Shown in pieces: positions 5,232 through 48,528 of a stretch of 64,000 bases of DNA. Below the pieces are notes generated by a model. The model worked only from the letters and a program-made list of their open reading frames with translations, was not told the origin of the DNA and made no database searches. The DNA comes from Escherichia coli (GTDB lineage: Bacteria > Pseudomonadota > Gammaproteobacteria > Enterobacterales > Enterobacteriaceae), in NCBI RefSeq assembly GCF_050920415.1, contig NZ_CP169309.1; one strand, given 5' to 3'. Numbering within the stretch: position 1 is the stretch's first letter; each line of letters starts with the position of its first letter. The position numbers were made by a program, and so were the translations under genes.

Positions 5232-5641
5232 CAGACTGGGTCCTGAATCAAAGAAGGGGAGAGTAAAGACTCTTTCCAGGCATCGGCAATATTGCGCATT
5301 AATGCTTCCACTTCTTCGACTGCGGAGACATCGTTGCGTAAATTGGCTTGCAGCAAGCGCCTGACCATATAGCTATAAAGAGCAATCAAGTTTTGGGTTA
5401 GTTCGTCTTTGCTCTCTTCATCAAGACTCACCTGCAGCCCGTTCTCAATGATGTTGATCGCTTTTGACAAAGAGACGCCTTTGCCTTGCTGATTGTTGTC
5501 CTGCATAAACAGGCGCGCTCTAACCAGTGCGCTCAGCACTCCATCAAATAGCATGGTGACCAGCTGCTGCTGGCTGGCGCTCATTACGGCGCTTTCGACG
5601 CCAATTTGTGCATAGGCCTGGGTGCCTTTTGCCGCGTACAT
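5231..5641 (-). CDS. fliS: Flagellin-specific chaperone FliS
   Basis: 136 aa ORF; synteny. Confidence 0.9.
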
Positions 5642-5656
5642 AGTTTCTCCTGAAGA

Positions 5657-7072
5657 TTATTTCGAGTTGCTATTTGAGGTGTCGAACTGCTGTGTCAGAT
5701 AGCTACTGGTGGAGTTAAGCGAGTTCATTAACACATCTAATTGGGTGAACTGGGCTTTATAGCGCGTCATTAAGGTATCGATACGCTCACTGGCTGCGTT
5801 GTACTGGTCGGTCAAATTATTCAGCGTTTTGCTGACGCCATCTTTTGCGGCCTGGATTATCCCGGTGGAAGAGAGCCAACTGGTTAGGTTGCTACTAATG
5901 CCGGTGGTTACCCCTGTACTTTTACCGTCACCTATAAACATTTCACCGATGCCAGTGGCATCTTTTTTTAGCGCCGTTTGCAGTTTGTCGGTCGCGATTT
6001 CCAGCTTGCCGGTACTGGCATCGCTGGTAATGCCAATCTGTGCCAGCGTTTTATAGTTTGAACTGCTGTGAGTATTGGCGAGCAAGGTTTTAAGCTGAGT
6101 CTGGATGGTACGCAGTGTGGAGTCACCGAGTAATGCGCCATTGCTGGAGTCCTGACTCTCTGCTCCGGCATCGACAGCGGTGTATTTGGTTAAGCTGCTG
6201 AACGTATCCTGCAATGAGTTATAGGCATCCACCCACGCTTTAACCGCATTTTCAGCTTTGGATGTGTCTTTACTGATGGTCAGTGTCTGATTACCGGTGG
6301 TGACGTCATTCAGGTTGAGGGTGATATCTTCCAGCGCGTCGCTGATAGTGTTACTACTGTTTTCAATCTCAACGTTATTGACTGTCAGTTTGGCGTTTTG
6401 CGCAGTGACGCTTTCAATCATGCCATTGCTGCTATCACCCGACGTTCCGTTGTAACCCATAAAACTTTCCAGGGCGCTGTCGCCGCTGACGCTAAGATTC
6501 ATAGCGTTATCGCTGCCCGTATCGTTAGCGGTGATGGACAGACGATATTCGCCGTTTCCCACATTGATGATACTGGCGCTGACACCAGCTTTGGCGTTGT
6601 TAATGGCATCGCGAATGCCGGAAAGTGACGAGTTACCCGCGCTGATATCAATCGTGACCGGATCTTTACCGCCGCCTTGTTGGATGGTCAGTACGCTATC
6701 GCTGGTGGCGATGGCGGCTTTACTGTCTTTTTGACTATTTTTTGTTGTCAGCGTCTGTGCCTGCGCCAGTTGGCTAACGCTAATGGTGTATTTCCCGGCA
6801 ATCGCGCTGCCCGTGGTGGTGGCGCTGAAAGCCGATGAACTGCTGGTGGTTGAGGTGGCGGTAAATAAATCGGCTTTATTCAGTGCTGTGTTGGCTGTCT
6901 GGAAACTCTCTAGTGCACTTTTCAGCGTCCCGTAGGCGCTCAGTTTCGCGGTGTAAGAGCTTTGCTGTTTTGATATCGGCGTCAGGGTAGATTTTTCTGC
7001 CGCCTCCAGACTGTCAAGGATGCTGCTTAAGTCCAGCCCCGACCCAACCCCAAGCGTTGAAATACTAGCCAT
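5657..7072 (-). CDS. fliD: Flagellar filament cap protein FliD
   Basis: 471 aa ORF with conserved FliD termini. Confidence 0.9.
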   Translation of the reverse strand: MASISTLGVGSGLDLSSILDSLEAAEKSTLTPISKQQSSYTAKLSAYGTLKSALESFQTANTALNKADLFTATSTTSSSSAFSATTTGSAIAGKYTISVSQLAQAQTLTTKNSQKDSKAAIATSDSVLTIQQGGGKDPVTIDISAGNSSLSGIRDAINNAKAGVSASIINVGNGEYRLSITANDTGSDNAMNLSVSGDSALESFMGYNGTSGDSSNGMIESVTAQNAKLTVNNVEIENSSNTISDALEDITLNLNDVTTGNQTLTISKDTSKAENAVKAWVDAYNSLQDTFSSLTKYTAVDAGAESQDSSNGALLGDSTLRTIQTQLKTLLANTHSSSNYKTLAQIGITSDASTGKLEIATDKLQTALKKDATGIGEMFIGDGKSTGVTTGISSNLTSWLSSTGIIQAAKDGVSKTLNNLTDQYNAASERIDTLMTRYKAQFTQLDVLMNSLNSTSSYLTQQFDTSNSNSK

Positions 7073-39405: not shown

Positions 39406-41157
39406 ATGATTCAGGACGCTTTTGTGCGCCAGCGTGCGCGGCAACTTTACTGGCAGGGTTATCCGCCCGCAGAAATATCACGTCTGATGGGAATAAACCC
39501 GAACACGATTTATGCGTGGAAAAAACGCGACCAGTGGGATGAAACGCCACCCGTGCAGCGTGTCACGCAGTCCATCGATGCGCGCCTCATCCAGCTCACT
39601 GAAAAACAGAATAAAACAGGTGGTGACTTCAAGGAAATAGACCTGCTGACCCGGCAGCTTAAAAAACTGCATGATGGCCAGCCGGATGCGACGGCCACAG
39701 GAAAGAAAGGCCGGGCGAAAAAGCTTAAAAATCATTTCACGCCGGAACAGATTGCCGCACTGCGGGAAAAAATCATCAGCAGGCTGGAGTGGCATCAGCG
39801 GGGCTGGTTTGACTCCCTGACCCTTTGCAGGGAAGCAGGGATACGTAACAGGATGATCCTGAAATCCCGACAGATTGGGGCGACCTGGTATTTTGCACAG
39901 GAAGCGCTGCTGATGGCGCTGCGTGACGATGTGGCGCAACCTTACCAGCGTAACCAGATTTTTTTGTCTGCGTCGCGTCGTCAGGCGTTCCAGTTTAAAA
40001 GCATTATTCAGAAGGCCGCGGCTGAAGTTGATGTGGAGTTGAAAGGGGGCGATAAAATCATCCTCTCCAACGGCGCAGAGCTGCATTTTCTCGGCACTTC
40101 TGCTGCGTCGGCACAGTCCTATACGGGCAATTTTTATTTTGATGAATTTTTCTGGGTCAGTCGCTTTGCTGAACTGCGCAAGGTGGCTGGCGCTATGGCA
40201 ACCCTCAGCGGACTGCGGCGCACCTACTTCTCCACGCCATCCACCGAAACGCACGAGGCATACGCCTACTGGAACGGCGACCGCTGGAACGAGAAAAAGG
40301 CCACGCATAAACGCCAGCGTTTTTCTGTGGACTGGAAAACGCTGCATAACGGGCTTATCTGCCCTGACCGGACGTGGCGGCAAATTGTCACGCTGGAAGA
40401 TGTGGTTAATCACGGCTGGAAACACACCGATATCGACGAAATTCGTGATGAAAACACCGAAGACGAGTTCCTCAATCTCTATATGTGTGAGTTTGTCCGC
40501 GAAGGGGAATCGGCATTTAACCTGAATATCCTGATTGGCTGCGGTGTTGACGGATACGACGACTGGAAAGACTGGAAACCTTTTGCTCCCCGCCCGATGG
40601 GGAATCGTCCGGTATGGATTGGGTATGACGCAAACGGCAGCAGTGGCAACGGCGACAGCGGCGCTGTGTCCGTGGTGGTTCCTCCGTCTGTTCCTGGTGG
40701 CCGTTTTCGAACGGTGGAGACGCGACGCGCTCAGGGGCTGGAGTTTGAAGAACAGGCCAGAGTCATTGAAGAGTTCACGTGTCGCTACAACGTGGAACAC
40801 ATCGGCATTGATGTGACGGGCGGGAACGGGGAGGCTGTTTATCAGATAGTGAAACGGTTTTTCCCTGCCGCTATTCCGTACACCTTCACGCTGTCATCAA
40901 AACGGTCGCTGGTACTGAAAATGCTGCAAATAATGCGTGCCGGGCGGTGGGAATACGATCGCGCCGAACGCGAGCTGGTCGCGGCCTTTAACGCCGTGCG
41001 TAAGGTGAAAACACCGGGCGGCTTTATCACTTACGAAACGGACCGCGCGAGGGGGATCAGCCACGGCGACCTTGCGTGGGCAACCATGCTTGCTGTCATT
41101 AACGAACCAATTGGCGGCGAAGGAGAAAACGAGCGTTTCACGGTTATGGAGTTCTGA
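39406..41157 (+). CDS. Terminase ATPase (large) subunit gpP-like
   Basis: 583 aa, divergent from gpO as in P2. Confidence 0.9.
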   Translation: MIQDAFVRQRARQLYWQGYPPAEISRLMGINPNTIYAWKKRDQWDETPPVQRVTQSIDARLIQLTEKQNKTGGDFKEIDLLTRQLKKLHDGQPDATATGKKGRAKKLKNHFTPEQIAALREKIISRLEWHQRGWFDSLTLCREAGIRNRMILKSRQIGATWYFAQEALLMALRDDVAQPYQRNQIFLSASRRQAFQFKSIIQKAAAEVDVELKGGDKIILSNGAELHFLGTSAASAQSYTGNFYFDEFFWVSRFAELRKVAGAMATLSGLRRTYFSTPSTETHEAYAYWNGDRWNEKKATHKRQRFSVDWKTLHNGLICPDRTWRQIVTLEDVVNHGWKHTDIDEIRDENTEDEFLNLYMCEFVREGESAFNLNILIGCGVDGYDDWKDWKPFAPRPMGNRPVWIGYDANGSSGNGDSGAVSVVVPPSVPGGRFRTVETRRAQGLEFEEQARVIEEFTCRYNVEHIGIDVTGGNGEAVYQIVKRFFPAAIPYTFTLSSKRSLVLKMLQIMRAGRWEYDRAERELVAAFNAVRKVKTPGGFITYETDRARGISHGDLAWATMLAVINEPIGGEGENERFTVMEF

Positions 41158-42203
41158 TGAGCAGAAAAAATAAAAAAGTGCGCATGAGTTCACGCATTGA
41201 TCTCGCTGATGCGCTCAGGAAAGAATCATCGCTCAGTGCATTCACATTTGATGGTCCTTATCGCCTGACCGGGCATGACCTGCTGGACAATATGTACTGT
41301 GCTGATAACGGGCGGTGGTATGAAACCCCGGTGGACTGGTACGGTCTGGCAAGAGCCGCCCGGCAAACGTCCTGGCATCAGTCTGCGCTTTACTTTAAGC
41401 GCAATGTATTGCTCGGTTGCTACATCCCGCACCCGCTGCTTTCCCGGCAGGATTTCTCGGCGCTGGCGCTGGACTGGTTTGTGTTCGGTAACGCATTCCT
41501 TGAGCTTCGAAGCAATATGCTCGGCGAACCGCTTAAATTACGGCACGCCCTGGCGAAATACATGCGACGCGGAAGCGATCTTGAATCATGGTGGTATGTG
41601 CAGGATGGCAAGGATGCGTTTCAGTTTCGCCCAGGCAAAGTGTGCCACCTGATGAATCCGGACATTAACCAGGAAATCTACGGCATGCCGGAATATCTCG
41701 GCGCATTACTCTCGGCCAGCCTGTCTCATTCGGCGGACATGTTCAGAAAACTGTATTACGACAACGGATCCCACGCCGGGTGCATCATCTACATCGGTGC
41801 AGCGCAGGTAAACCGCGAAAGCATGGACTCCCTGAAAGAAACGCTACAGGGTGCGCGTGGTGGTGGTGCGTTTAAAAACGTGCTCATTCATGCGCCCAAC
41901 GGGGGCAAAGAGGGGGTGCAAATTTTGCCGTTCCAGCAGATCACCGCAAAGGATGAGTTCATGAATGTTAAGGCGGCATCCCGTGATGATGTGCTGGCTG
42001 CGCACCGCGTTCCGCCGCAACTGATGGGGGCGATGCCGGGTGAAAAAAGTGCGTTTGGTGATGTGGAGAAGGCCGCGCGGGTTTACGCAATTAACGAGCT
42101 GATGCCCGTCATGGAGGCCATGAAGCATATCAATGACTGGCTTGGCGAAGAGGTGCTCCGCTTTAACCCTTACGCACTGCTGGACACCCAGCCCACATCC
42201 TGA
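41157..42203 (+). CDS. Portal protein gpQ-like
   Basis: 348 aa directly after the terminase gene. Confidence 0.9.
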   Translation: MSRKNKKVRMSSRIDLADALRKESSLSAFTFDGPYRLTGHDLLDNMYCADNGRWYETPVDWYGLARAARQTSWHQSALYFKRNVLLGCYIPHPLLSRQDFSALALDWFVFGNAFLELRSNMLGEPLKLRHALAKYMRRGSDLESWWYVQDGKDAFQFRPGKVCHLMNPDINQEIYGMPEYLGALLSASLSHSADMFRKLYYDNGSHAGCIIYIGAAQVNRESMDSLKETLQGARGGGAFKNVLIHAPNGGKEGVQILPFQQITAKDEFMNVKAASRDDVLAAHRVPPQLMGAMPGEKSAFGDVEKAARVYAINELMPVMEAMKHINDWLGEEVLRFNPYALLDTQPTS

Positions 42204-42656
42204 CGCGCTTCGCTTGTCTGCTGCTTCGCCGGGGCATAAAAAATTTATGCCCCGACTCTCCAGCTCCTGTATCAGTCAGATAATTTCACGACGCCTTCCA
42301 GTTTATCGCCACTATCGACAGTCAGACTCTTACGCAATCCCACTGCGCTGACTGCATGTTCTCGCCGCCTCAGTGCGATTTTGACGGCCTTATCTGCCAC
42401 CCCGTCAAATCAAAAGCCCTCACGTCTTTTTCACGCTCAGCGTGAGAAATACAGCCATTCTGTTGTGTCGCTGCGACATCGTTCAGGGGATGCTATTTAC
42501 CCCCTGAAACGCGGGCTGTTCCCCCGTCACCTGCGCGTAGAAAAAGCGCGTTTTTTTGTGCACGCACGGATCCTTGACGGATCCAGCCGCCACGCGGGCC
42601 GGAAGGGCAAAAAGTCGTTCAAAAAAATTGTGCAAATTTGTGCACTATTGTGCATT

Positions 42657-42686
42657 GAAATAAACGCCCTGGAAGAGGGCGTTTTG
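42657..42686 (-). terminator. Terminator at the end of the cargo operon
   Basis: Hairpin AACGCCCTCTTCCAGGGCGTT followed by a T-rich tail on the minus strand. Confidence 0.5.
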
Positions 42687-42694
42687 GCTCATTT

Positions 42695-42955
42695 CTATAG
42701 CTTTGATGCAGGCTGGGCTAGATGTAAGGGTTGGACATACCAGCCTTTTGATAACCAACTCTCTGCAACATCTTTACTCCTTGTTATTGCTGGTATTCCG
42801 ATGCCGTTATTTACATGCATCCATGCTACTGGCTCTGCTTCCAGCGATGCCAGTGCAATTTCATAAGCACGGCGTTCAATATTGTCTCGAACGTCCAGGC
42901 TGCCGATGCGCTCTTTGATTTCTTTAATCAGTTCTTTGTCGGTGAACGTTGTCAT
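42695..42955 (-). CDS. Hypothetical small protein (cargo operon gene 8)
   Basis: 86 aa ORF, last gene of the minus-strand operon; no recognised family. Confidence 0.45.
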   Translation of the reverse strand: MTTFTDKELIKEIKERIGSLDVRDNIERRAYEIALASLEAEPVAWMHVNNGIGIPAITRSKDVAESWLSKGWYVQPLHLAQPASKL

Positions 42956-42965
42956 GTGTTAGTCC

Positions 42966-43229
42966 TTATCCTGCTGTGCTTTCAACTGATGAGGGGAACA
43001 AAATCTTTTCATCAAATCCGGCATTCATATCATGGACAGCAACACACCAATCCATCGACGAACGATTATCAAGAGCCTCCATGATTTCATCCATGCGGCG
43101 TAGGTCATACAGGTAAATGTTTTTATCGCCAATGGTGTAAAAACCAATTTTTTTCGGTGATGGACAGCGATCAAGAACGTCCTGTAATTCGTTCAACCAT
43201 GCCTGTTCTTTTTTTGTCAACGTTGCCAT
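42966..43229 (-). CDS. Hypothetical small protein (cargo operon gene 7)
   Basis: About 87 aa from MATLTKKEQ; no recognised family. Confidence 0.45.
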   Translation of the reverse strand: MATLTKKEQAWLNELQDVLDRCPSPKKIGFYTIGDKNIYLYDLRRMDEIMEALDNRSSMDWCVAVHDMNAGFDEKILFPSSVESTAG

Positions 43230-43230
43230 A

Positions 43231-43449
43231 TCAGTTTTCCTTATACGGATTAATTTTATTGTGCAATGTGTTGAACGACGCCCATACCACGTCGTTATAC
43301 AATTCAATAACTGGCTCAATTATTTTCCCGATTGCCCAGATAAAAATTAGCGGGGATATCGGTATCATCAACACGATAAACAGAATGAGAAACAGAAATT
43401 CTATTGCTCTACTCTTTCGCGGATAGTTTTTCCTGAATAGTGTAGGCAC
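43231..43449 (-). CDS. Small single-pass membrane protein (cargo operon gene 6)
   Basis: 72 aa with one strongly hydrophobic helix (FLFLILFIVLMIPISPLIFIWAIG). Confidence 0.45.
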   Translation of the reverse strand: MPTLFRKNYPRKSRAIEFLFLILFIVLMIPISPLIFIWAIGKIIEPVIELYNDVVWASFNTLHNKINPYKEN

Positions 43450-43450
43450 C

Positions 43451-43645
43451 TCACTCTCCTTTAATGCGAAAGTGGTTTTTCCAGCGGTTTTGCGCCGCGC
43501 TGGGCTTTTTGCAAAAACCGCAATCCATCATCCCGTAATATTTCATCAACCCCATTCGTCGGTTGCTGAGTCTCACCCACTGCCATACGCCTGGATCGTT
43601 TCTGCGAACTAACAGAATCTTTGCTTTACGGTTGTTGGTTGCCAT
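43451..43645 (-). CDS. Hypothetical small basic protein (cargo operon gene 5)
   Basis: About 64 aa from MATNNRK; Cys/His-containing; start uncertain. Confidence 0.35.
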   Translation of the reverse strand: MATNNRKAKILLVRRNDPGVWQWVRLSNRRMGLMKYYGMMDCGFCKKPSAAQNRWKNHFRIKGE

Positions 43646-43961
43646 ATCCCCCTCCCTTGATACCAATATTTACAACATGGCAAGCCTCTTTGAGCACCCA
43701 GTCAACAGCGTCTTTCCATGCTCCGGTTTCGGCTGGCGGATTCTCACGCTTTACCAGTTCATAGAAACGTACTGCTCTAACCAGTCCATCTGACGGTTTT
43801 GCCTGTAGTGCAGCCTGAGCTATGCGGTATGCCTGGAGTATACGGGCGTCGTTGATATCCATTCCGAACGGAATTTCTGATGATTGTGATTCTGCATCTT
43901 CAAGCCTGGCAATTTCTTTACGTAAGAAGTATTTCAACTCTTGTTTTTGTTTTCTGTTCAT
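43626..43961 (-). CDS. Hypothetical protein (cargo operon gene 4)
   Basis: 111 aa ORF, no recognised family. Confidence 0.45.
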
Positions 43962-44290
43962 GCGTTTTTTCCCTTTTTGTCTGTCACTTCTCTCCTGATA
44001 ATTTCATTGCACAAATCCACGCACTCATTGCAGATGTAAACAGACGGTCCAGCAATCACCTTTGTGACTTCGTACTGGGATTTATTGCAGAAGCTGCAAT
44101 AAATCGTCTCCTCACCTGAAGTCCATGTTTTGCTGGTTTCGCCAGACATCAGTTGTTTGAGGTCTTTTTCACGACGAAGAACTATCTGGCCACATTCAGC
44201 TATTTTTTGGATGTTGACATTTTCTTCTTTCGCCAGCGCTTCCATCCGCTCAATCAGTCGCTGCGCTTTTTCTCTGTCAATGTGTTGCAT
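43958..44290 (-). CDS. Small protein with C-terminal ClpX-type C4 zinc-finger domain
   Basis: C-terminus [38 protein letters not shown] closely matches the recalled N-terminal zinc-binding domain of ClpX. Confidence 0.7.
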
Positions 44291-44353
44291 TGTGTCCCCC
44301 TTGTTTATGCTCCCGGGTTAAAGTCATCAGGGCGGATGCGCCCTGATGTTGTG

Positions 44354-44665
44354 TTATTCGGGAAATAACGCCCGGATATTTCCGGCCATCTGACTGGTTA
44401 TCTGTGCGGCTGATACTGGCTGTGACGCGGGGCGTTCTGTCCTGGGTTGTGTCACTGATAACGCCTCATCATCAGCCCATGCAGCCAGTCGGTAAGCCTC
44501 TGCCGGATTCATTTTCAGTAGTGCCAGCCCGGCCAGAAAAGCCACGCGTTGACCACTTTTGCGGGCTTCTGGTGTAAGGCTGTCCAGCCAGGCGCATGCT
44601 TCGCCTTCGTTCTTGACGGCGGCGGGCTTCAGATAGAAACTTATCCGTCTGGTTGGTGTCGTCAT
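44354..44665 (-). CDS. ParR-like DNA-binding adaptor
   Basis: About 103 aa from MTTPTRRISFYLKP...LDSLTPEARK...AFLAGLAL...ALFPE; resembles recalled plasmid R1 ParR. Confidence 0.65.
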   Translation of the reverse strand: MTTPTRRISFYLKPAAVKNEGEACAWLDSLTPEARKSGQRVAFLAGLALLKMNPAEAYRLAAWADDEALSVTQPRTERPASQPVSAAQITSQMAGNIRALFPE

Positions 44666-44669
44666 TGGC

Positions 44670-45629
44670 TTACTCCTTGTCCATTGCGTACAGCCCATTA
44701 ACCAGAGCAAACTGTGGCACCCCGTCCGCGATGAAAGTCGCATTAACTCCGCAGGCTTCGCGGATAGCGGGTGCCACAATCTCCGCCCCGCCACCGACAA
44801 CCATCACCCGCCCGTAACCCGAAAAACCCGCCAGCGCGCGGATCACGCGTTGTTTCAGTGTTTCTTCCTTTTCACGAATAACCGCCATCAGGCTGGCGTA
44901 ATGCGCGTCATTGTGGATGTGCTGGCGCAGCCAGGCTTCATCATGGCGATGTTCAATAATGGTATTGGCGATGTGGTGACTGGTGCGCATACCGTTAGTG
45001 GCCATCACCGACAGCACGGCATCGGCCATCAGTGAAACACCTACGTGTGGATCGCAAAACACCTGGCTGATACCTGCCAGTTGTCCCTGAACCTTTGCCA
45101 CATCCAGCGTGGTTCCGCCCAAATCCACAATCAGCAGGGATTCAAACGGACTCATGTCAGCCAGTGCCTTAAAGCCTGCCGGAATGGATTCAGGCATAAC
45201 CCGCACGTTACGGATAGTGAATGCCTCACCGTTCTGGTACTCCACCGGGCGCATAACGTTCGCTTTTTTGCGGTTGATGTTGGCCATGTCCGGCTGTGCG
45301 TTTGTGTCGAAATACTCGCTCAGTGGCAGGGTGACAACCACATCCACCTCCTGTGGCGTGATGCCTGATTTGACCAGCGCGTGATGAATGGCAATGACAT
45401 TCACATCGCTGTATTGGTATTGCGTGTCGGTCGTCTGGACAAAGCGATCGCTGACCGGATCAAAACCATAGCGCACGCCATCAAGCATGTAGTTCGCGGG
45501 CTGCGTGCCACCGAACGGCGCAGACCATTCCGACTTGAAGCTGTTCGGGCTGATGGCGTTGCGGCGTTCGCCGTTCTCAGTCCATGCCAGCTTGATGTTG
45601 GTGGAGCCGTCGTCGATACAAATTTTCAT
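44670..45629 (-). CDS. ParM/StbA-like actin-fold ATPase
   Basis: 319 aa; N-terminus MKICIDDGSTNIKLAW...ISPNSFK and ...YSDVNVIAIHHAL... closely resemble recalled plasmid R1 ParM. Confidence 0.85.
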   Translation of the reverse strand: MKICIDDGSTNIKLAWTENGERRNAISPNSFKSEWSAPFGGTQPANYMLDGVRYGFDPVSDRFVQTTDTQYQYSDVNVIAIHHALVKSGITPQEVDVVVTLPLSEYFDTNAQPDMANINRKKANVMRPVEYQNGEAFTIRNVRVMPESIPAGFKALADMSPFESLLIVDLGGTTLDVAKVQGQLAGISQVFCDPHVGVSLMADAVLSVMATNGMRTSHHIANTIIEHRHDEAWLRQHIHNDAHYASLMAVIREKEETLKQRVIRALAGFSGYGRVMVVGGGAEIVAPAIREACGVNATFIADGVPQFALVNGLYAMDKE

Positions 45630-45660
45630 GTCGCTTTTCCTTATGTTGATTAATTAATCG

Positions 45661-45756
45661 TTTACGGGATTCTGAAATCCCGTTTTTGCCTGCTTTGTGC
45701 GCGCTTCATATATCACTGCGCGTTTTTTGCTCATTTACGGGATTCGTGAGTCCCGT
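45661..45756. promoter_or_regulatory. Two 20-bp palindromes upstream of parM (candidate parC-like centromere/operator)
   Basis: ACGGGATTCTGAAATCCCGT (45664..45683) and ACGGGATTCGTGAGTCCCGT (45737..45756), each preceded by TTT; the second overlaps the last codons of gene A. Confidence 0.5.
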
Positions 45757-48528
45757 TTCTGTCTGTTTTTTGTTTCCGCTGGTCAGGCCACCCCGCAGCA
45801 GGTCTGCTTTGCGGCTGGCGCGTTCAGTGGTTTCACTGATTCTCTGTGCGTGCTCTGCGTCGCGGATGGCGCGCAGCATGTCAGAAAGCACAGTAACGGG
45901 TGTTTTCATGGTGTTCTGGTCCTGCTGAAGTGTGGATGCCAGGCGTGCGGCGGCTTCAGGGTCTGATGCCCCCAGCTGTGCCAGATAGCTGGCGACCGGG
46001 TTATGGCGGATCTCCGTGCTGCTTACGCCATGATTACGGCTCAGGCGCTGCCAGAGCTGCGTGATTCGGCTGTCCGGGCGGGTATCCGGTTTGCGTACAA
46101 TTTCAAATCCCTGCGGTGCAATGATGCTGCCGTCAACGTACAGACTGCCGCCCCGTAACAGGTGCTGCATCTGTTGTTCACCGATATGCAGGCCGAGAGA
46201 TTCAGCAGACTCCCGCCATTCTTTAGCGAGTAATTCGTGGTTATCAGGCAAAGGCCGCTGCTGTTTGCGGCTCTGTGTCCAGCTCTGCATTTCATCACTG
46301 CTGTTTTTTGCCTGTTTGTCACGAAGCGAACGCATCAGCGCCCGGCGTTCGTGCCGTTTCAGTGAGCGCATCCATTCGTTCACTTCAACGCCGTCAGGGA
46401 GCTGCGGCCACGGTGCTGGCCGTTCTTCCGGCTGTTCTGTCCCGTTGTTGTCCGTTTCCTGTGCACGGGGACAGTTATTGCCACGAGTCCAAGGGGCGGC
46501 AGGGCCGCCCTGAAGGTCAAAACCATTTTCGTGGGCGTTGTCTCCCGGTTCTGGTTTACGTCTTACCAGCTTCCAGTTATCCGGATGCGTGCACACACGG
46601 GAGGATTCCCCGATGAGTGGTGACCAGATCCCGTAAATCTGTACGCTCTGTTCGCCGTAATCGTTCAGCTCATCTGCGAGGTCGTAGGCGGTGCGAATCA
46701 GGTAGTCCTTGCGTGGAACAAGCACGCCACCCTGTTTTTCAATGTAGGTGGCAAAACACCCGGCATCGGCGGCAGCGAGTACCGCATCCATTGCATCATC
46801 TTTCAGCCGTTGCGGGCCTTCCGGATTGCGTGCCATCTGGCTGGCAAGGCGGCGCAGTTCACGCCACACCTGACGGGAGGGGATGCCAAAGAACTGGAAC
46901 TGACGGACCCGGTGAAGGCGCGCCCAGCCGATGGCGCGCTCCACGCTCTCGGCCATTGATTTTCCGGTTTCGTGGTCAACGCGTGGCTTGCCCGTTTTCG
47001 GGTCGATGCCATCCACGGCGCGGCTGTCCAGGTTCTTTCCGATGTAGGTGGCGATGTAGCTGGTTGGTGTGCCTTTTGAGCCGTCGACATACTCCGCCTT
47101 AAAACGCGGAGTTATGTCATCGCCCAGCTCGTGGCGGTCCTCCTGAATGGCAATATCGCAGACGTGGGACACGATGGTTTCAATCTCGTCCGGATGTGCA
47201 AAGACCATCATATGCCAGTGCACAGTGCCGTCATGGTGAGGCTCCACCGTGCGGATGCCATACCAGCGCAGGCCGTCGCGGTTCAGTTTTTTGCGGACCG
47301 CCGCAAAAAACGTGTTAACCAGGTAATCGCTGGAGTCGCGCATGGTGGCCCCGTTCCATTTGGGGTTCGGATGACCGTTCTCCGTTGTTGCGTGGTATTT
47401 TGACGGGCAGGTGACGGTCAGAAACACCGCTCTGTCGCCACGGGCTTCGGCCAGAAGTTCCAGTCCCTTCATGGTGGCCATCATTTCTGCCTTACGGTGA
47501 ACCGGGTTACTTACTCCCGCGTAATACACCGTCTCGAGATCAATCGTGAACCCGTCTTCATTTTCCAGCATGAAACTTTTCAGGAAATCGCGTGTTTTCT
47601 CGCGCTGTGCGCGAAACTCGCTTAACGCGTCCTGGCTCAGATAGGGGGATGTTTTTCTGGAAACCAGACAGGCGGCGCGGAGTTGTTCTTCCCGCCACTC
47701 ACAACGTAACAGCCACAGTTTGCGTTTCCACCATTCCGCACAGGTCAAGCGAAGGATTGCGCCCGGCAGCAGCTCCGTGTCCGGTTCGTTCCTCCGGTCT
47801 TTGTCTGTTGTCAGTGCGTCATAATGTGGAGGCATGGCGTGCAGGTGTAACGCCATGCGGGCCAGCATCTGATAAGCCTTCAGGGTTACATCCATGGTCA
47901 GCTCGCCATCAGTCGCGCCAAAGCCATCGCAGAGTTTTTCGAAGGTGCTGCTGAACATCGCCGCCGTCATGGTGGCCAGCGTCTGTATCTGGTGTTTGTT
48001 GAGCTGCGGCAGGTAAAGCAAATCGTCCAGGCGTTCGCGTCCGGCAAGGGAGCGATAACCCGGTGTCAGCCAGCGGTGGTCGGTGCGGTCCAGACGTTCG
48101 AATATTTTGCGCAGGGTTCCGCACGCGTAGCGTTCAGCCTGCCAGCTCTTTTTGCCTTTCCGGCGATCGGCTTCCTGTTTTTTGCGCAGGAAGGAGAGGT
48201 GGCGAATAAGCGGATCGCGCAGATAGGACGGCAGCAGGCGCAGCGAGGCCATGGCTTCATCCACCGCGCCACGTGCCTGTTTTCTGGCGTCTCCTGCCAG
48301 TGTGATGGTTTTGTCCTGTTTTTCCTGTGCGTCCAGGCTTTTATTAATCAGGTTGCCCAGCGGCGTGGCGGAGAACGCCGCATCAGCCATTTCCTGGCGG
48401 CGCTCGTTCTCTGCCCGGTAGGCATCCAGCCAGGAGGAAAGCGCGGATTCAGGAGCGGGGATCCCCGTTCCTTCACGCCCCACTGCGTGGCGCGGTTGTT
48501 GCCAGTCCCTGATGTACTCTGCCGTCAT
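45706..48528 (-). CDS. Replication initiation endonuclease (P2 gpA-like, rolling-circle)
   Basis: 940 aa at the canonical position downstream of the early operon; longer than the ~760 aa I recall for P2 A. Confidence 0.8.
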   Translation of the reverse strand: MTAEYIRDWQQPRHAVGREGTGIPAPESALSSWLDAYRAENERRQEMADAAFSATPLGNLINKSLDAQEKQDKTITLAGDARKQARGAVDEAMASLRLLPSYLRDPLIRHLSFLRKKQEADRRKGKKSWQAERYACGTLRKIFERLDRTDHRWLTPGYRSLAGRERLDDLLYLPQLNKHQIQTLATMTAAMFSSTFEKLCDGFGATDGELTMDVTLKAYQMLARMALHLHAMPPHYDALTTDKDRRNEPDTELLPGAILRLTCAEWWKRKLWLLRCEWREEQLRAACLVSRKTSPYLSQDALSEFRAQREKTRDFLKSFMLENEDGFTIDLETVYYAGVSNPVHRKAEMMATMKGLELLAEARGDRAVFLTVTCPSKYHATTENGHPNPKWNGATMRDSSDYLVNTFFAAVRKKLNRDGLRWYGIRTVEPHHDGTVHWHMMVFAHPDEIETIVSHVCDIAIQEDRHELGDDITPRFKAEYVDGSKGTPTSYIATYIGKNLDSRAVDGIDPKTGKPRVDHETGKSMAESVERAIGWARLHRVRQFQFFGIPSRQVWRELRRLASQMARNPEGPQRLKDDAMDAVLAAADAGCFATYIEKQGGVLVPRKDYLIRTAYDLADELNDYGEQSVQIYGIWSPLIGESSRVCTHPDNWKLVRRKPEPGDNAHENGFDLQGGPAAPWTRGNNCPRAQETDNNGTEQPEERPAPWPQLPDGVEVNEWMRSLKRHERRALMRSLRDKQAKNSSDEMQSWTQSRKQQRPLPDNHELLAKEWRESAESLGLHIGEQQMQHLLRGGSLYVDGSIIAPQGFEIVRKPDTRPDSRITQLWQRLSRNHGVSSTEIRHNPVASYLAQLGASDPEAAARLASTLQQDQNTMKTPVTVLSDMLRAIRDAEHAQRISETTERASRKADLLRGGLTSGNKKQTETGLTNPVNEQKTRSDI

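Follow-up and report, generated by a model that had tools for sequence, protein, structure and literature searches.

The interval between the replication gene A and the portal gene Q of P2-like phages has been described as the 'old/tin' diversity hotspot of these phages (Rousset et al. 2022, PMC9122126). In that work a putative partition system was reported there for about a quarter of these phages and classed as 'likely involved in other functions'; its tables already contain an arrangement 'StbA + Plasmid_stab_B + zf-C4_ClpX + hypothetical x3', and the ParM/StbA-type arrangement is outside the set of hotspot systems that were assayed (PMC9122126). Here we examine such a locus in Escherichia coli, within a window of 64,000 nucleotides (the whole stretch of contig NZ_CP169309.1 that was analysed), in which five small open reading frames (ORF1-5; 42695-43961, minus strand) follow genes for ParM, ParR and a ClpX-type zinc-finger protein. 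They occupy the slot between gpA and gpQ, beside cos, in an element whose nearest phages are Escherichia phage P88 and PhiR44_2 (genus Xuanwuvirus, Peduoviridae), and which by its sequence affinities is a P88-like (Xuanwuvirus) prophage of the P2 family. Our comparisons indicate that ORF1-5 are real genes shared with lambdoid phages, a phage-like plasmid and a conjugative plasmid, and that they assort independently of one another instead of forming a module.

The locus resembles the described hotspot cargo in its position by cos, in its high turnover of content and in its layout of ParM/StbA, ParR, ClpX-type zinc finger and hypothetical proteins. It differs in that the validated hotspot systems consist of larger proteins that were cloned under their native promoters, whereas ORF1-5 encode proteins of 64-111 aa with no match to a defence model. 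A validated hotspot system of three hypothetical proteins was considered as an identity for the block and rejected, because its proteins are 200-350 aa long and are unmatched by ORF1-5. The six RefSeq protein accessions looked up are absent from the portions of the published tables that were examined (PMC9122126).

Three further bodies of work bear on the locus. In lambda and Phi24B, transcription of the exo-xis region takes place very early, from pL (PMC8614690), a statement that concerns the region and not ORF1-5 themselves, and this region influences lysogenisation and induction (PMC3824215, PMC7093339, PMC8614690). In conjugative plasmids the first ~30 genes of the leading region are enriched in early-expressed anti-defence functions, with relaxases usually falling in the lagging region (Samuel et al. 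2024, PMC11541004). Finally, it has long been proposed that phage mosaicism arises by exchange at short sequences conserved at gene boundaries (cited in PMC3029335).

Five genes that assort independently

The five genes are packed tightly on the minus strand. ORF1 (43626-43961; 111 aa, ATG start) is joined by an ATGA overlap to the upstream gene for the zinc-finger protein and overlaps ORF2 (43451-43645; 64 aa from the ATG at 43645) by 20 nt. A single nucleotide separates ORF2 from ORF3 (43231-43449; 72 aa, GTG start), as it does ORF3 from ORF4 (42966-43229; 87 aa from the ATG at 43229), and a gap of 10 nt precedes ORF5 (42695-42955; 86 aa). The same five coding sequences are called by NCBI PGAP in an E. 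coli chromosome that is 99.9% identical. In comparisons with relatives 84-98% identical in DNA, the ratio of non-synonymous to synonymous change (pN/pS) is 0.33-0.41 for ORF1, 0.15-0.24 for ORF2, 0.16-0.32 for ORF3, 0.03-0.09 for ORF4 and 0.04-0.12 for ORF5; the underlying counts are small, with the synonymous excess lying in the same direction for every one of the five. Taken together, this comparative evidence indicates that ORF1-5 are real genes, all under purifying selection. They are also common: identical protein sequences of each occur on ~600 to 1000 or more public contigs, where the exact copies are always named as hypothetical, prophage or DUF4014 proteins.

Downstream of ORF5 lies a GC-rich, terminator-like hairpin on the same strand, with an extended stem at 42657-42695 and a core stem at ~42663-42683 (AACGCCCU/AGGGCGUU). 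The 71-nt stretch around it folds at -21.3 kcal/mol (z = -4.1 against shuffled sequences), and it is kept in all variants of the slot, the flank at 42400-42721 being 95% identical in P88. The U-tail that follows (UAUUUC) is weak, and the hairpin is therefore missed by a strict terminator scan. In this region, promoter-like sites are no more frequent than chance (2 against 3.8 expected, and fewer than in shuffles), and an internal promoter for ORF1-5 is unsupported, the sole minus-strand promoter-like site, inside ORF1, scoring 9/12. Since the genes are closely spaced and promoter-like sites do not exceed chance, we infer that ORF1-5 are co-transcribed. Several elements of the sequence-only reading of this stretch are thus upheld: five tightly packed small ORFs (by the ORF calls, the agreement with PGAP and the pN/pS values), an end of the block at a hairpin placed at 42657..42686, which is a real fold though its weak U-tail escapes the strict scan, and an assignment to the P2 old/tin variable slot, which agrees with the position between gpA and gpQ next to cos and with the published definition (PMC9122126).

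The same reading had treated the five genes as a module, and this does not hold. To obtain relatives, we collected prophage contigs that encode the same zinc-finger protein and mapped onto them the eight operon proteins together with the portal protein. Among prophages whose zinc-finger genes are >89% identical, the trio of ParM, ParR and the ClpX-type zinc-finger protein is constant (L001-L035), and the content downstream of it varies among at least nine arrangements, counted in loci that are related to one another. The full string of ORF1-5 is found in three of these loci (L006-L008) and in five complete E. coli genomes, the latter out of 5,426 complete E. coli genomes; ORF1 alone is found in P88 and five contigs. 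Other arrangements combine ORF1 with ORF4, ORF1 with ORF5, or ORF1 and ORF2 with another ORF and ORF5, and in UTI89 and PhiR44_2 a protein of the XF1762 family stands between ORF1 and ORF4, with or without ORF5. Elsewhere the slot holds a pair of larger proteins or an Ea22-like pair, an unrelated pair of 118 and 87 aa, or, in L025, L026 and L029 (~5503-6266), a gene for a Doc-family toxin together with a partner gene, in an orientation opposite to that of the zinc-finger gene. This toxin (135 aa; TIGR01550, E 2e-14) has a 118-aa upstream partner, is read towards the zinc-finger gene and replaces ORF1-5.

The same independence is evident outside the P88-like phages. Of 63 loci in the IMG/VR database that carry ORF4 and have flanks of 1.5 kb or more on both sides, 27 have ORF3 next to it, 6 have ORF2 and 4 have ORF5; full-length ORF1 or the zinc-finger gene adjoins it in 2, and 36 of the 63 have ORF4 without ORF3. 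Each of the five genes occurs somewhere without the others. A multi-component system would not behave in this way, and on these genomic comparisons ORF1-5 are not a module.

By blastn break-points, the segment missing from P88 corresponds to 42722-43651 (minus strand), i.e. the tail of ORF1, all of ORF2, ORF3 and ORF4, and most of ORF5. P88 joins 43652 directly to 42721, such that residues 1-103 of ORF1 are fused to the last eight codons of ORF5, and its gp20 product, of 112 aa, ends in ...GIKGDLAQPASKL.

Lambdoid and plasmid relatives and the junctions between cassettes

Several of the genes have close relatives in lambdoid phages. The xis-exo region of the Shiga toxin (Stx) phage 933W (L0065-L0068) and ~200 further lambdoid records share 92-96% DNA identity with ORF2, ORF3 and the part of ORF5 that encodes its first 44 residues. 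At the protein level ORF3 is 92% identical to L0067 of 933W, ORF2 is 93% identical to an ORF overlapping L0068, and the N-terminus of ORF5 is 86% identical to L0065. Most IMG/VR contexts of ORF4 likewise hold lambdoid int, xis, L0069 or exo-bet-gam genes. The likeness to the variable xis-exo ('ea') genes of lambdoid phages comprises direct homology, small and tightly packed co-directional genes, the same linkers between them and a mosaic domain make-up. The locus is unlike that region in that the cassettes sit here in a P2-family phage downstream of ParMR, outside any pL operon. None of the exo-xis genes that have been studied (ea22, ea8.5, orf60a/61/63/73) is among ORF1-5, and by homology the five belong to the variable, unstudied set of genes of the xis-exo region.

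One linker recurs between the cassettes; it reads AAAGGAGAGTGA and then ATG or GTG, and combines a Shine-Dalgarno sequence, a stop codon and a start codon. Its canonical form, AAAGGAGAGTGAGGTG, lies at the ORF2/ORF3 junction (43447-43462, minus strand), and variants are found on the same strand at the junctions of ORF1 with ORF2 (AAGGGAGGGGGATATG, 43643-43658), ORF3 with ORF4 (AAGGAAAACTGATATG) and ORF4 with ORF5 (TAAGGACTAACACATG). The presence of the linker at the junctions means that many of these proteins end in ...IKGE or ...IKGD. When junctions are compared, the ORF2/ORF3 junction of the window on the minus strand reads ATTAAAGGAGAGTGAGGTG, the two sides of the XF1762 gene in UTI89 read ATCAAAGGAGAGTGAGAGTG and ATCAAAGGAGAGTGATATG, and junctions of 933W read ACTAAAGGAGAGTGATATG and AACAAAGGAGAGTGATGTG. 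In the fetched loci, the gene strand contains 110 copies of the 12-nt core AA[AG]GGAG[AG]GTGA where ~0.3 would be expected (1.19 Mb, uniform composition), a count that is descriptive and not a test because the loci are related. The deletion in P88 starts directly after AAAGGAGA, and its other (right) end is without homology and looks illegitimate. These junctions fit exchange at short conserved boundaries, an idea whose original work reportedly concerned HK620 and lambdoid phages. As in the boundary-sequence mosaicism of temperate phages, a short conserved junction sequence recurs wherever cassettes are swapped; unlike in that model, the same linker here spans unrelated types of element, namely lambdoid phages, P2-like phages, a phage-like plasmid and an IncI2 plasmid.

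Plasmids are the second group of carriers, with 610 plasmid records matching the cassettes. The IncI2 conjugative plasmid pHB37-3 has a string (L127, 5000-6245; L128, 10424-13719) consisting of a protein with EaA-like and ORF1 C-terminal modules, ORF2 (100%), a paralogue of ORF2 (60%), ORF4 (99%) and a gene with the N-terminus of ORF5, joined by the same linkers as in the prophage. Counted leftward from the gap that separates mobC from a StbA-like gene, these cassettes, just beyond stbA/stbB, are the 4th to 7th annotated genes; they lie on one strand and read away from the relaxase side. The ORF after mobC resembles relaxases weakly (E 9e-5, with a score far under the curated cut-off), and PLSDB types the plasmid as MOBP. 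In lying among the first genes beyond the stbA/mobC gap in one orientation, the string would resemble the anti-defence islands of leading regions, many genes of which are also small and uncharacterised. It is unlike them in that no similarity of ORF1-5 to known anti-restriction, anti-CRISPR or SOS-inhibitor proteins was found, anti-defence hidden Markov model sets not having been scanned. A further carrier, pAPEC201603, is a 94-kb non-mobilizable plasmid with a phage-like gene set; ORF3 (93%) and ORF4 (100%) lie there (L126, 4367-6210) between Ead/Ea22-like and DUF551 genes, with Eaa and ASCH genes nearby and doc/phd ~3 kb off.

As stated so far the finding is an ordinary one, concerning mosaic and uncharacterised small phage genes in an already mapped slot, whose proteins are already in databases. 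Its value lies in the comparative picture, in which nearly unchanged genes and junctions recur in Stx phages, in P2-like prophages of uropathogenic and other E. coli, in a phage-like plasmid and in an IncI2 plasmid. This pattern across elements speaks for a general function of mobile elements on their entry into a cell over one tied to a single phage life cycle.

Protein families and possible roles

All five proteins match PHROG families of unknown function (E ~2e-27 to 7e-51), and ORF3 is a full-length member of a Pfam family. The statement in the sequence-only reading that none matches a recognisable family accordingly needs correction, although the functions of these families are uncharacterised; its further description of the genes as novel is at odds with the many identical proteins held in public data under hypothetical or prophage names. 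Pfam and NCBIfam gave no family for ORF1, ORF2, ORF4 and ORF5, no enzymatic domain was found in any of the five, and composition and structure data point to no enzyme. A sequence search of solved structures with ORF1, ORF2, ORF4, ORF5 and a profile of the ORF1 family returned no credible match. Our literature search found nothing on Xuanwuvirus at this locus and nothing linking exo-xis with anti-defence.

ORF1 (PHROG 26213/660, E ~2e-27) consists of an N-terminal helical segment and a near-invariant C-terminal module of 45 residues, which in alignment is common to lambdoid proteins of 140-170 aa. In P88-like phages it varies least of the five genes, with differences between variants in its last 8 codons. 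ORF2 (PHROG 1380, E 1e-38) belongs to a narrow family of 34 clusters and is very basic (isoelectric point 11), with a conserved N-terminus and C-terminus (KPSAAQNRWKNH). Zinc binding through its CGFC motif was considered and rejected, as the cysteines vary within the family.

ORF3 corresponds to Pfam DUF4014 (PF13198; E 4.4e-26, residues 2-72 on model positions 2-72 of 72), in agreement with PGAP, and to PHROG 1832; it is found in 125 phage records. It alone of the five has a hydrophobic stretch of transmembrane grade (Kyte-Doolittle 2.97, residues 19-37), in a layout of a basic, positively charged N-terminus, a transmembrane segment at ~residues 17-41 and a C-terminal tail of ~30 aa, so that hydropathy and the DUF4014 match both bear out the earlier call of one single-pass membrane protein among the five. 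The PHROG label of ORF3, which some records also give to DUF4014 proteins, is 'released from the phage upon host infection'; its source proved to be re-annotation of phage records in databases, with no experiment located, and we regard it as unsupported. One record behind this label reads 'acetyltransferase inhibitor'. ORF3 as half of a membrane toxin-antitoxin pair was also rejected, because its neighbours change between elements: they are ORF2 and ORF4 here, L0068 and L0066 in 933W, and an Ead/Ea22-like gene in pAPEC201603.

ORF4 is an acidic (isoelectric point 4.7), compact alpha/beta protein and the most constrained of the five, retaining 53-97% identity across many genera with the invariant residues C22, P23, S24, P25, K27, G29, T32, Y41, D42, R44 and P79 (the RCPSPKKIGFYTIGD region). 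ORF5 comprises an EaA-like N-terminal helical hairpin, ending in ...ALASLEAEPVAW, and a small alpha/beta module; these are the first two modules of longer lambdoid proteins (to ~350 aa), many of which end in DUF551, and its last 8 codons (LAQPASKL) are P88-backbone sequence. AlphaFold models of ORF4 and ORF5 are confident, yet no solved fold was matched. Being highly constrained, widespread and confidently folded, with no solved structure matched, ORF4 is the best single target for functional work. An ORF4-like domain (57% identity over 74 columns) also occurs inside a 277-aa Salmonella protein annotated as DGQHR-domain-containing (AlphaFold database A0A606XM42), which may reflect either a genuine fusion or the merging of two adjacent genes and could offer a neighbourhood clue for ORF4.

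The placement of the genes relative to the prophage control region is clearest in the complete genome FDAARGOS_1059, which has an identical block in a prophage inserted between pheA and raiA. Its integrase and repressor genes read in one direction, and in the opposite direction runs a long co-directional string from gpA (940 aa; 45706-48528 in the window, minus strand) through ParM (44670-45629, minus), ParR (44354-44665, minus) and the 110-aa zinc-finger protein (43958-44290, minus), with ORF5 last. Because ORF1-5 are co-directional with, and last in, a string that starts opposite repressor and integrase, they would lie at the distal end of an early rightward operon consisting of gpA, ParM, ParR, the zinc-finger protein and then ORF1-5.

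We favour, with slightly better than even confidence, the proposal that ORF1-5 are independent small-protein cassettes of the lambdoid 'ea' type, made early on entry or induction and acting on the host or its defences. What is observed is that the genes exist, are under constraint, assort independently, and have the origin and the linkers described above; it is the timing of expression and the action that the proposal adds. Such cassettes would have recombined, at shared modules and linkers, into the cos-proximal slot of a P2-like phage. The linker could serve twice, its Shine-Dalgarno-stop-start arrangement coupling the translation of neighbouring cassettes and its sequence supplying short homologies for swapping cassettes between elements. 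Each protein would then work by itself and bind a protein of the host, some component of the membrane or a nucleic acid, presumably in the first minutes following entry or induction of the element, and would aid establishment by adjusting host physiology or blunting host defences. Counter-defence as the specific role is a narrower claim that we consider unlikely; should any of the genes block a host defence, the small number of counter-defence genes common to phages and plasmids would gain a member.

Several points weigh against this proposal. The fetched loci are related to one another, and counts of arrangements are not counts of independent events. For homologues of ORF1-5, including DUF4014 proteins and 933W L0065-68, we found no published experimental function, and with the structural searches empty the binding of host factors is suggested by small size and lack of domains only. 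The assignment of the pHB37-3 cassettes to the leading region is likewise indirect, combining the weak relaxase match with the rule that relaxases fall in the lagging region. As to transcription, a strong 10-bp GC-rich hairpin lies between parR and the zinc-finger gene (44325-44348, minus strand, by folding), in a 70-nt intergenic stretch that folds at -22.9 kcal/mol (z = -4.8), with only a weak U-run after it on the coding strand. As an attenuator or RNA-stability element it may set parMR apart from the downstream genes, and it may curb read-through into ORF1-5. A promoter in the gap between gpA and parM, for its part, could give low expression in the lysogen, which would fit a role in defence or exclusion.

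A bolder form of the proposal would see the genes as members of one pool of linker-flanked, translationally coupled mini-cassettes that circulates among lambdoid phages, P2-like phages, phage-like plasmids and IncI2 plasmids and is placed in their first-expressed stretch. The linker would be the common recombination joint, and at least some members (the acidic ORF4, the basic ORF2, the membrane protein ORF3) would represent new factors for counter-defence or establishment. We put this forward tentatively, as a rather unlikely whole.

The homologues in the xis-exo region raise a different explanation, in which the proteins are developmental modulators that bias the choice between lysis and lysogeny or the timing of induction, like Ea22, orf60a, orf61, orf63 and orf73. 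That region does affect lysogenisation and induction (PMC3824215, PMC7093339, PMC8614690), and the modules of ORF1 and ORF5 are shared with mosaic proteins that neighbour, or are fused to, Ead/Ea22-type proteins; a mosaic make-up of portable domains has also been described for Ea22 variants (PMC10834534). The tie of ORF1 and ORF5 to Ead/Ea22-type proteins, however, goes only through such shared mosaic modules and neighbourhood: neither matched Ead_Ea22 (PF13935) in the Pfam scan or the 'ead/Ea22-like family' in the NCBIfam scan, and the ORF1-family profile did not recover the solved C-terminal domain of Ea22 from the PDB. Moreover, near-identical ORF2, ORF4 and an ORF5-type gene are found on an IncI2 plasmid, which has no lysis-lysogeny decision to make, and the switches of P2-family and lambdoid phages are unrelated. 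Because the genes are shared by phages with unrelated switches and by a conjugative plasmid, a general entry function is likelier than control of lysis and lysogeny, and we regard modulation of development as distinctly unlikely.

More improbable still is a prophage-expressed anti-phage defence or superinfection exclusion comparable to old and tin in P2, for which ORF3 would be the obvious candidate. Exclusion factors are known among small single-pass membrane proteins, HK97 gp15 and T4 Imm being examples. The slot itself is the published gpA-gpQ hotspot with variable cargo, and in some relatives it is filled by the Doc-family toxin with its weak PADLOC candidate matches. Against this, models of PADLOC-DB v2.0.0 matched neither four of the ORFs nor the three upstream genes at E <=0.1, and the sole match of ORF1, to PDC-M28C (E = 0.025, 11 bits), is noise, so that the PADLOC check of the whole eight-gene block that the sequence-only reading had proposed yields nothing better than E = 0.025. 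Ten alternative cargo proteins of the slot, searched against defence models, gave only weak Fic/Doc candidate matches. ORF1-5 are also unrelated to the validated hotspot systems, stand in early-operon orientation without a promoter signal of their own, and have homologues in a repressor-controlled early-left lambdoid operon and near stbAB/mobC on a conjugative plasmid. Such positions are typical of genes expressed on entry or induction and not of prophage-expressed defence, and the label of a candidate defence locus originally given to the block is hence not sustained; partition-system arrangements, as noted above, were classed by Rousset et al. with other functions (PMC9122126).

Least probable of all is that the genes are functionless passengers, recombination debris moved by way of the linkers with ORF1 and ORF5 as truncated pieces of longer modular genes, since the facts in its favour (ORF5 equals the first 84 residues of relatives of 170-265 aa and ends in P88-backbone codons, ORF1 is without the middle domain of its relatives, P88 is viable without ORF2-5, and the full arrangement is rare among complete E. 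coli genomes) are set against a synonymous excess in all five, strongest in ORF4 and ORF5, the conservation of ORF4 and its invariant residues over many genera, exact sequences on hundreds of contigs in four kinds of element, and confidently predicted folds.

Surroundings of the slot

On the far side of the slot the P2-family genes for the terminase gpP (39406-41157) and the portal gpQ (41157-42203) lie on the plus strand. At its pheA-side end, the prophage of FDAARGOS_1059 has an IS66-family insertion element (IS679; L125, 8520-12221) placed between its integrase gene and a partial integrase fragment.

Two 42-nt direct repeats (45658-45699 and 45731-45772) are 79% identical and 73 nt apart, each with the palindrome ACGGGATTC..GAATCCCGT; the gap between gpA and parM holds one of them, and the second lies within the 3' end of gpA. 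The repeats are candidates for the centromere or operator (parC) of the ParMR system. The zinc-finger protein resembles ClpX over its last 40-50 residues, which match the C4 zinc-binding domain found at the N-terminus of ClpX (E 2e-13); it has no ATPase, and it is kept together with ParM and ParR in all P88-like loci examined. A free substrate- or adaptor-binding domain of ClpX encoded by a phage could interfere with recognition by ClpXP.

A scan of 42100-45800 against Rfam gave two sub-threshold matches at chance level only, one of them a 'gyrA RNA' match at 42209-42262 (E 0.036; 22 bits, the gathering threshold being 45) that is probably due to chance. The non-coding stretch of 490 bp from the portal gene to ORF5 (42204-42694), on the cos side, is 94-95% conserved in every variant of the slot including P88, and small ORFs called in it (e.g. 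MHNSAQICTIF...) recur merely through this conservation of the DNA. Some relatives have a second insertion point, in which an ORF of 187 aa and unknown family lies between this conserved cos-side region and the portal gene (L012, 6835-7398; L019, 7201-7764; L029, 6828-7391).

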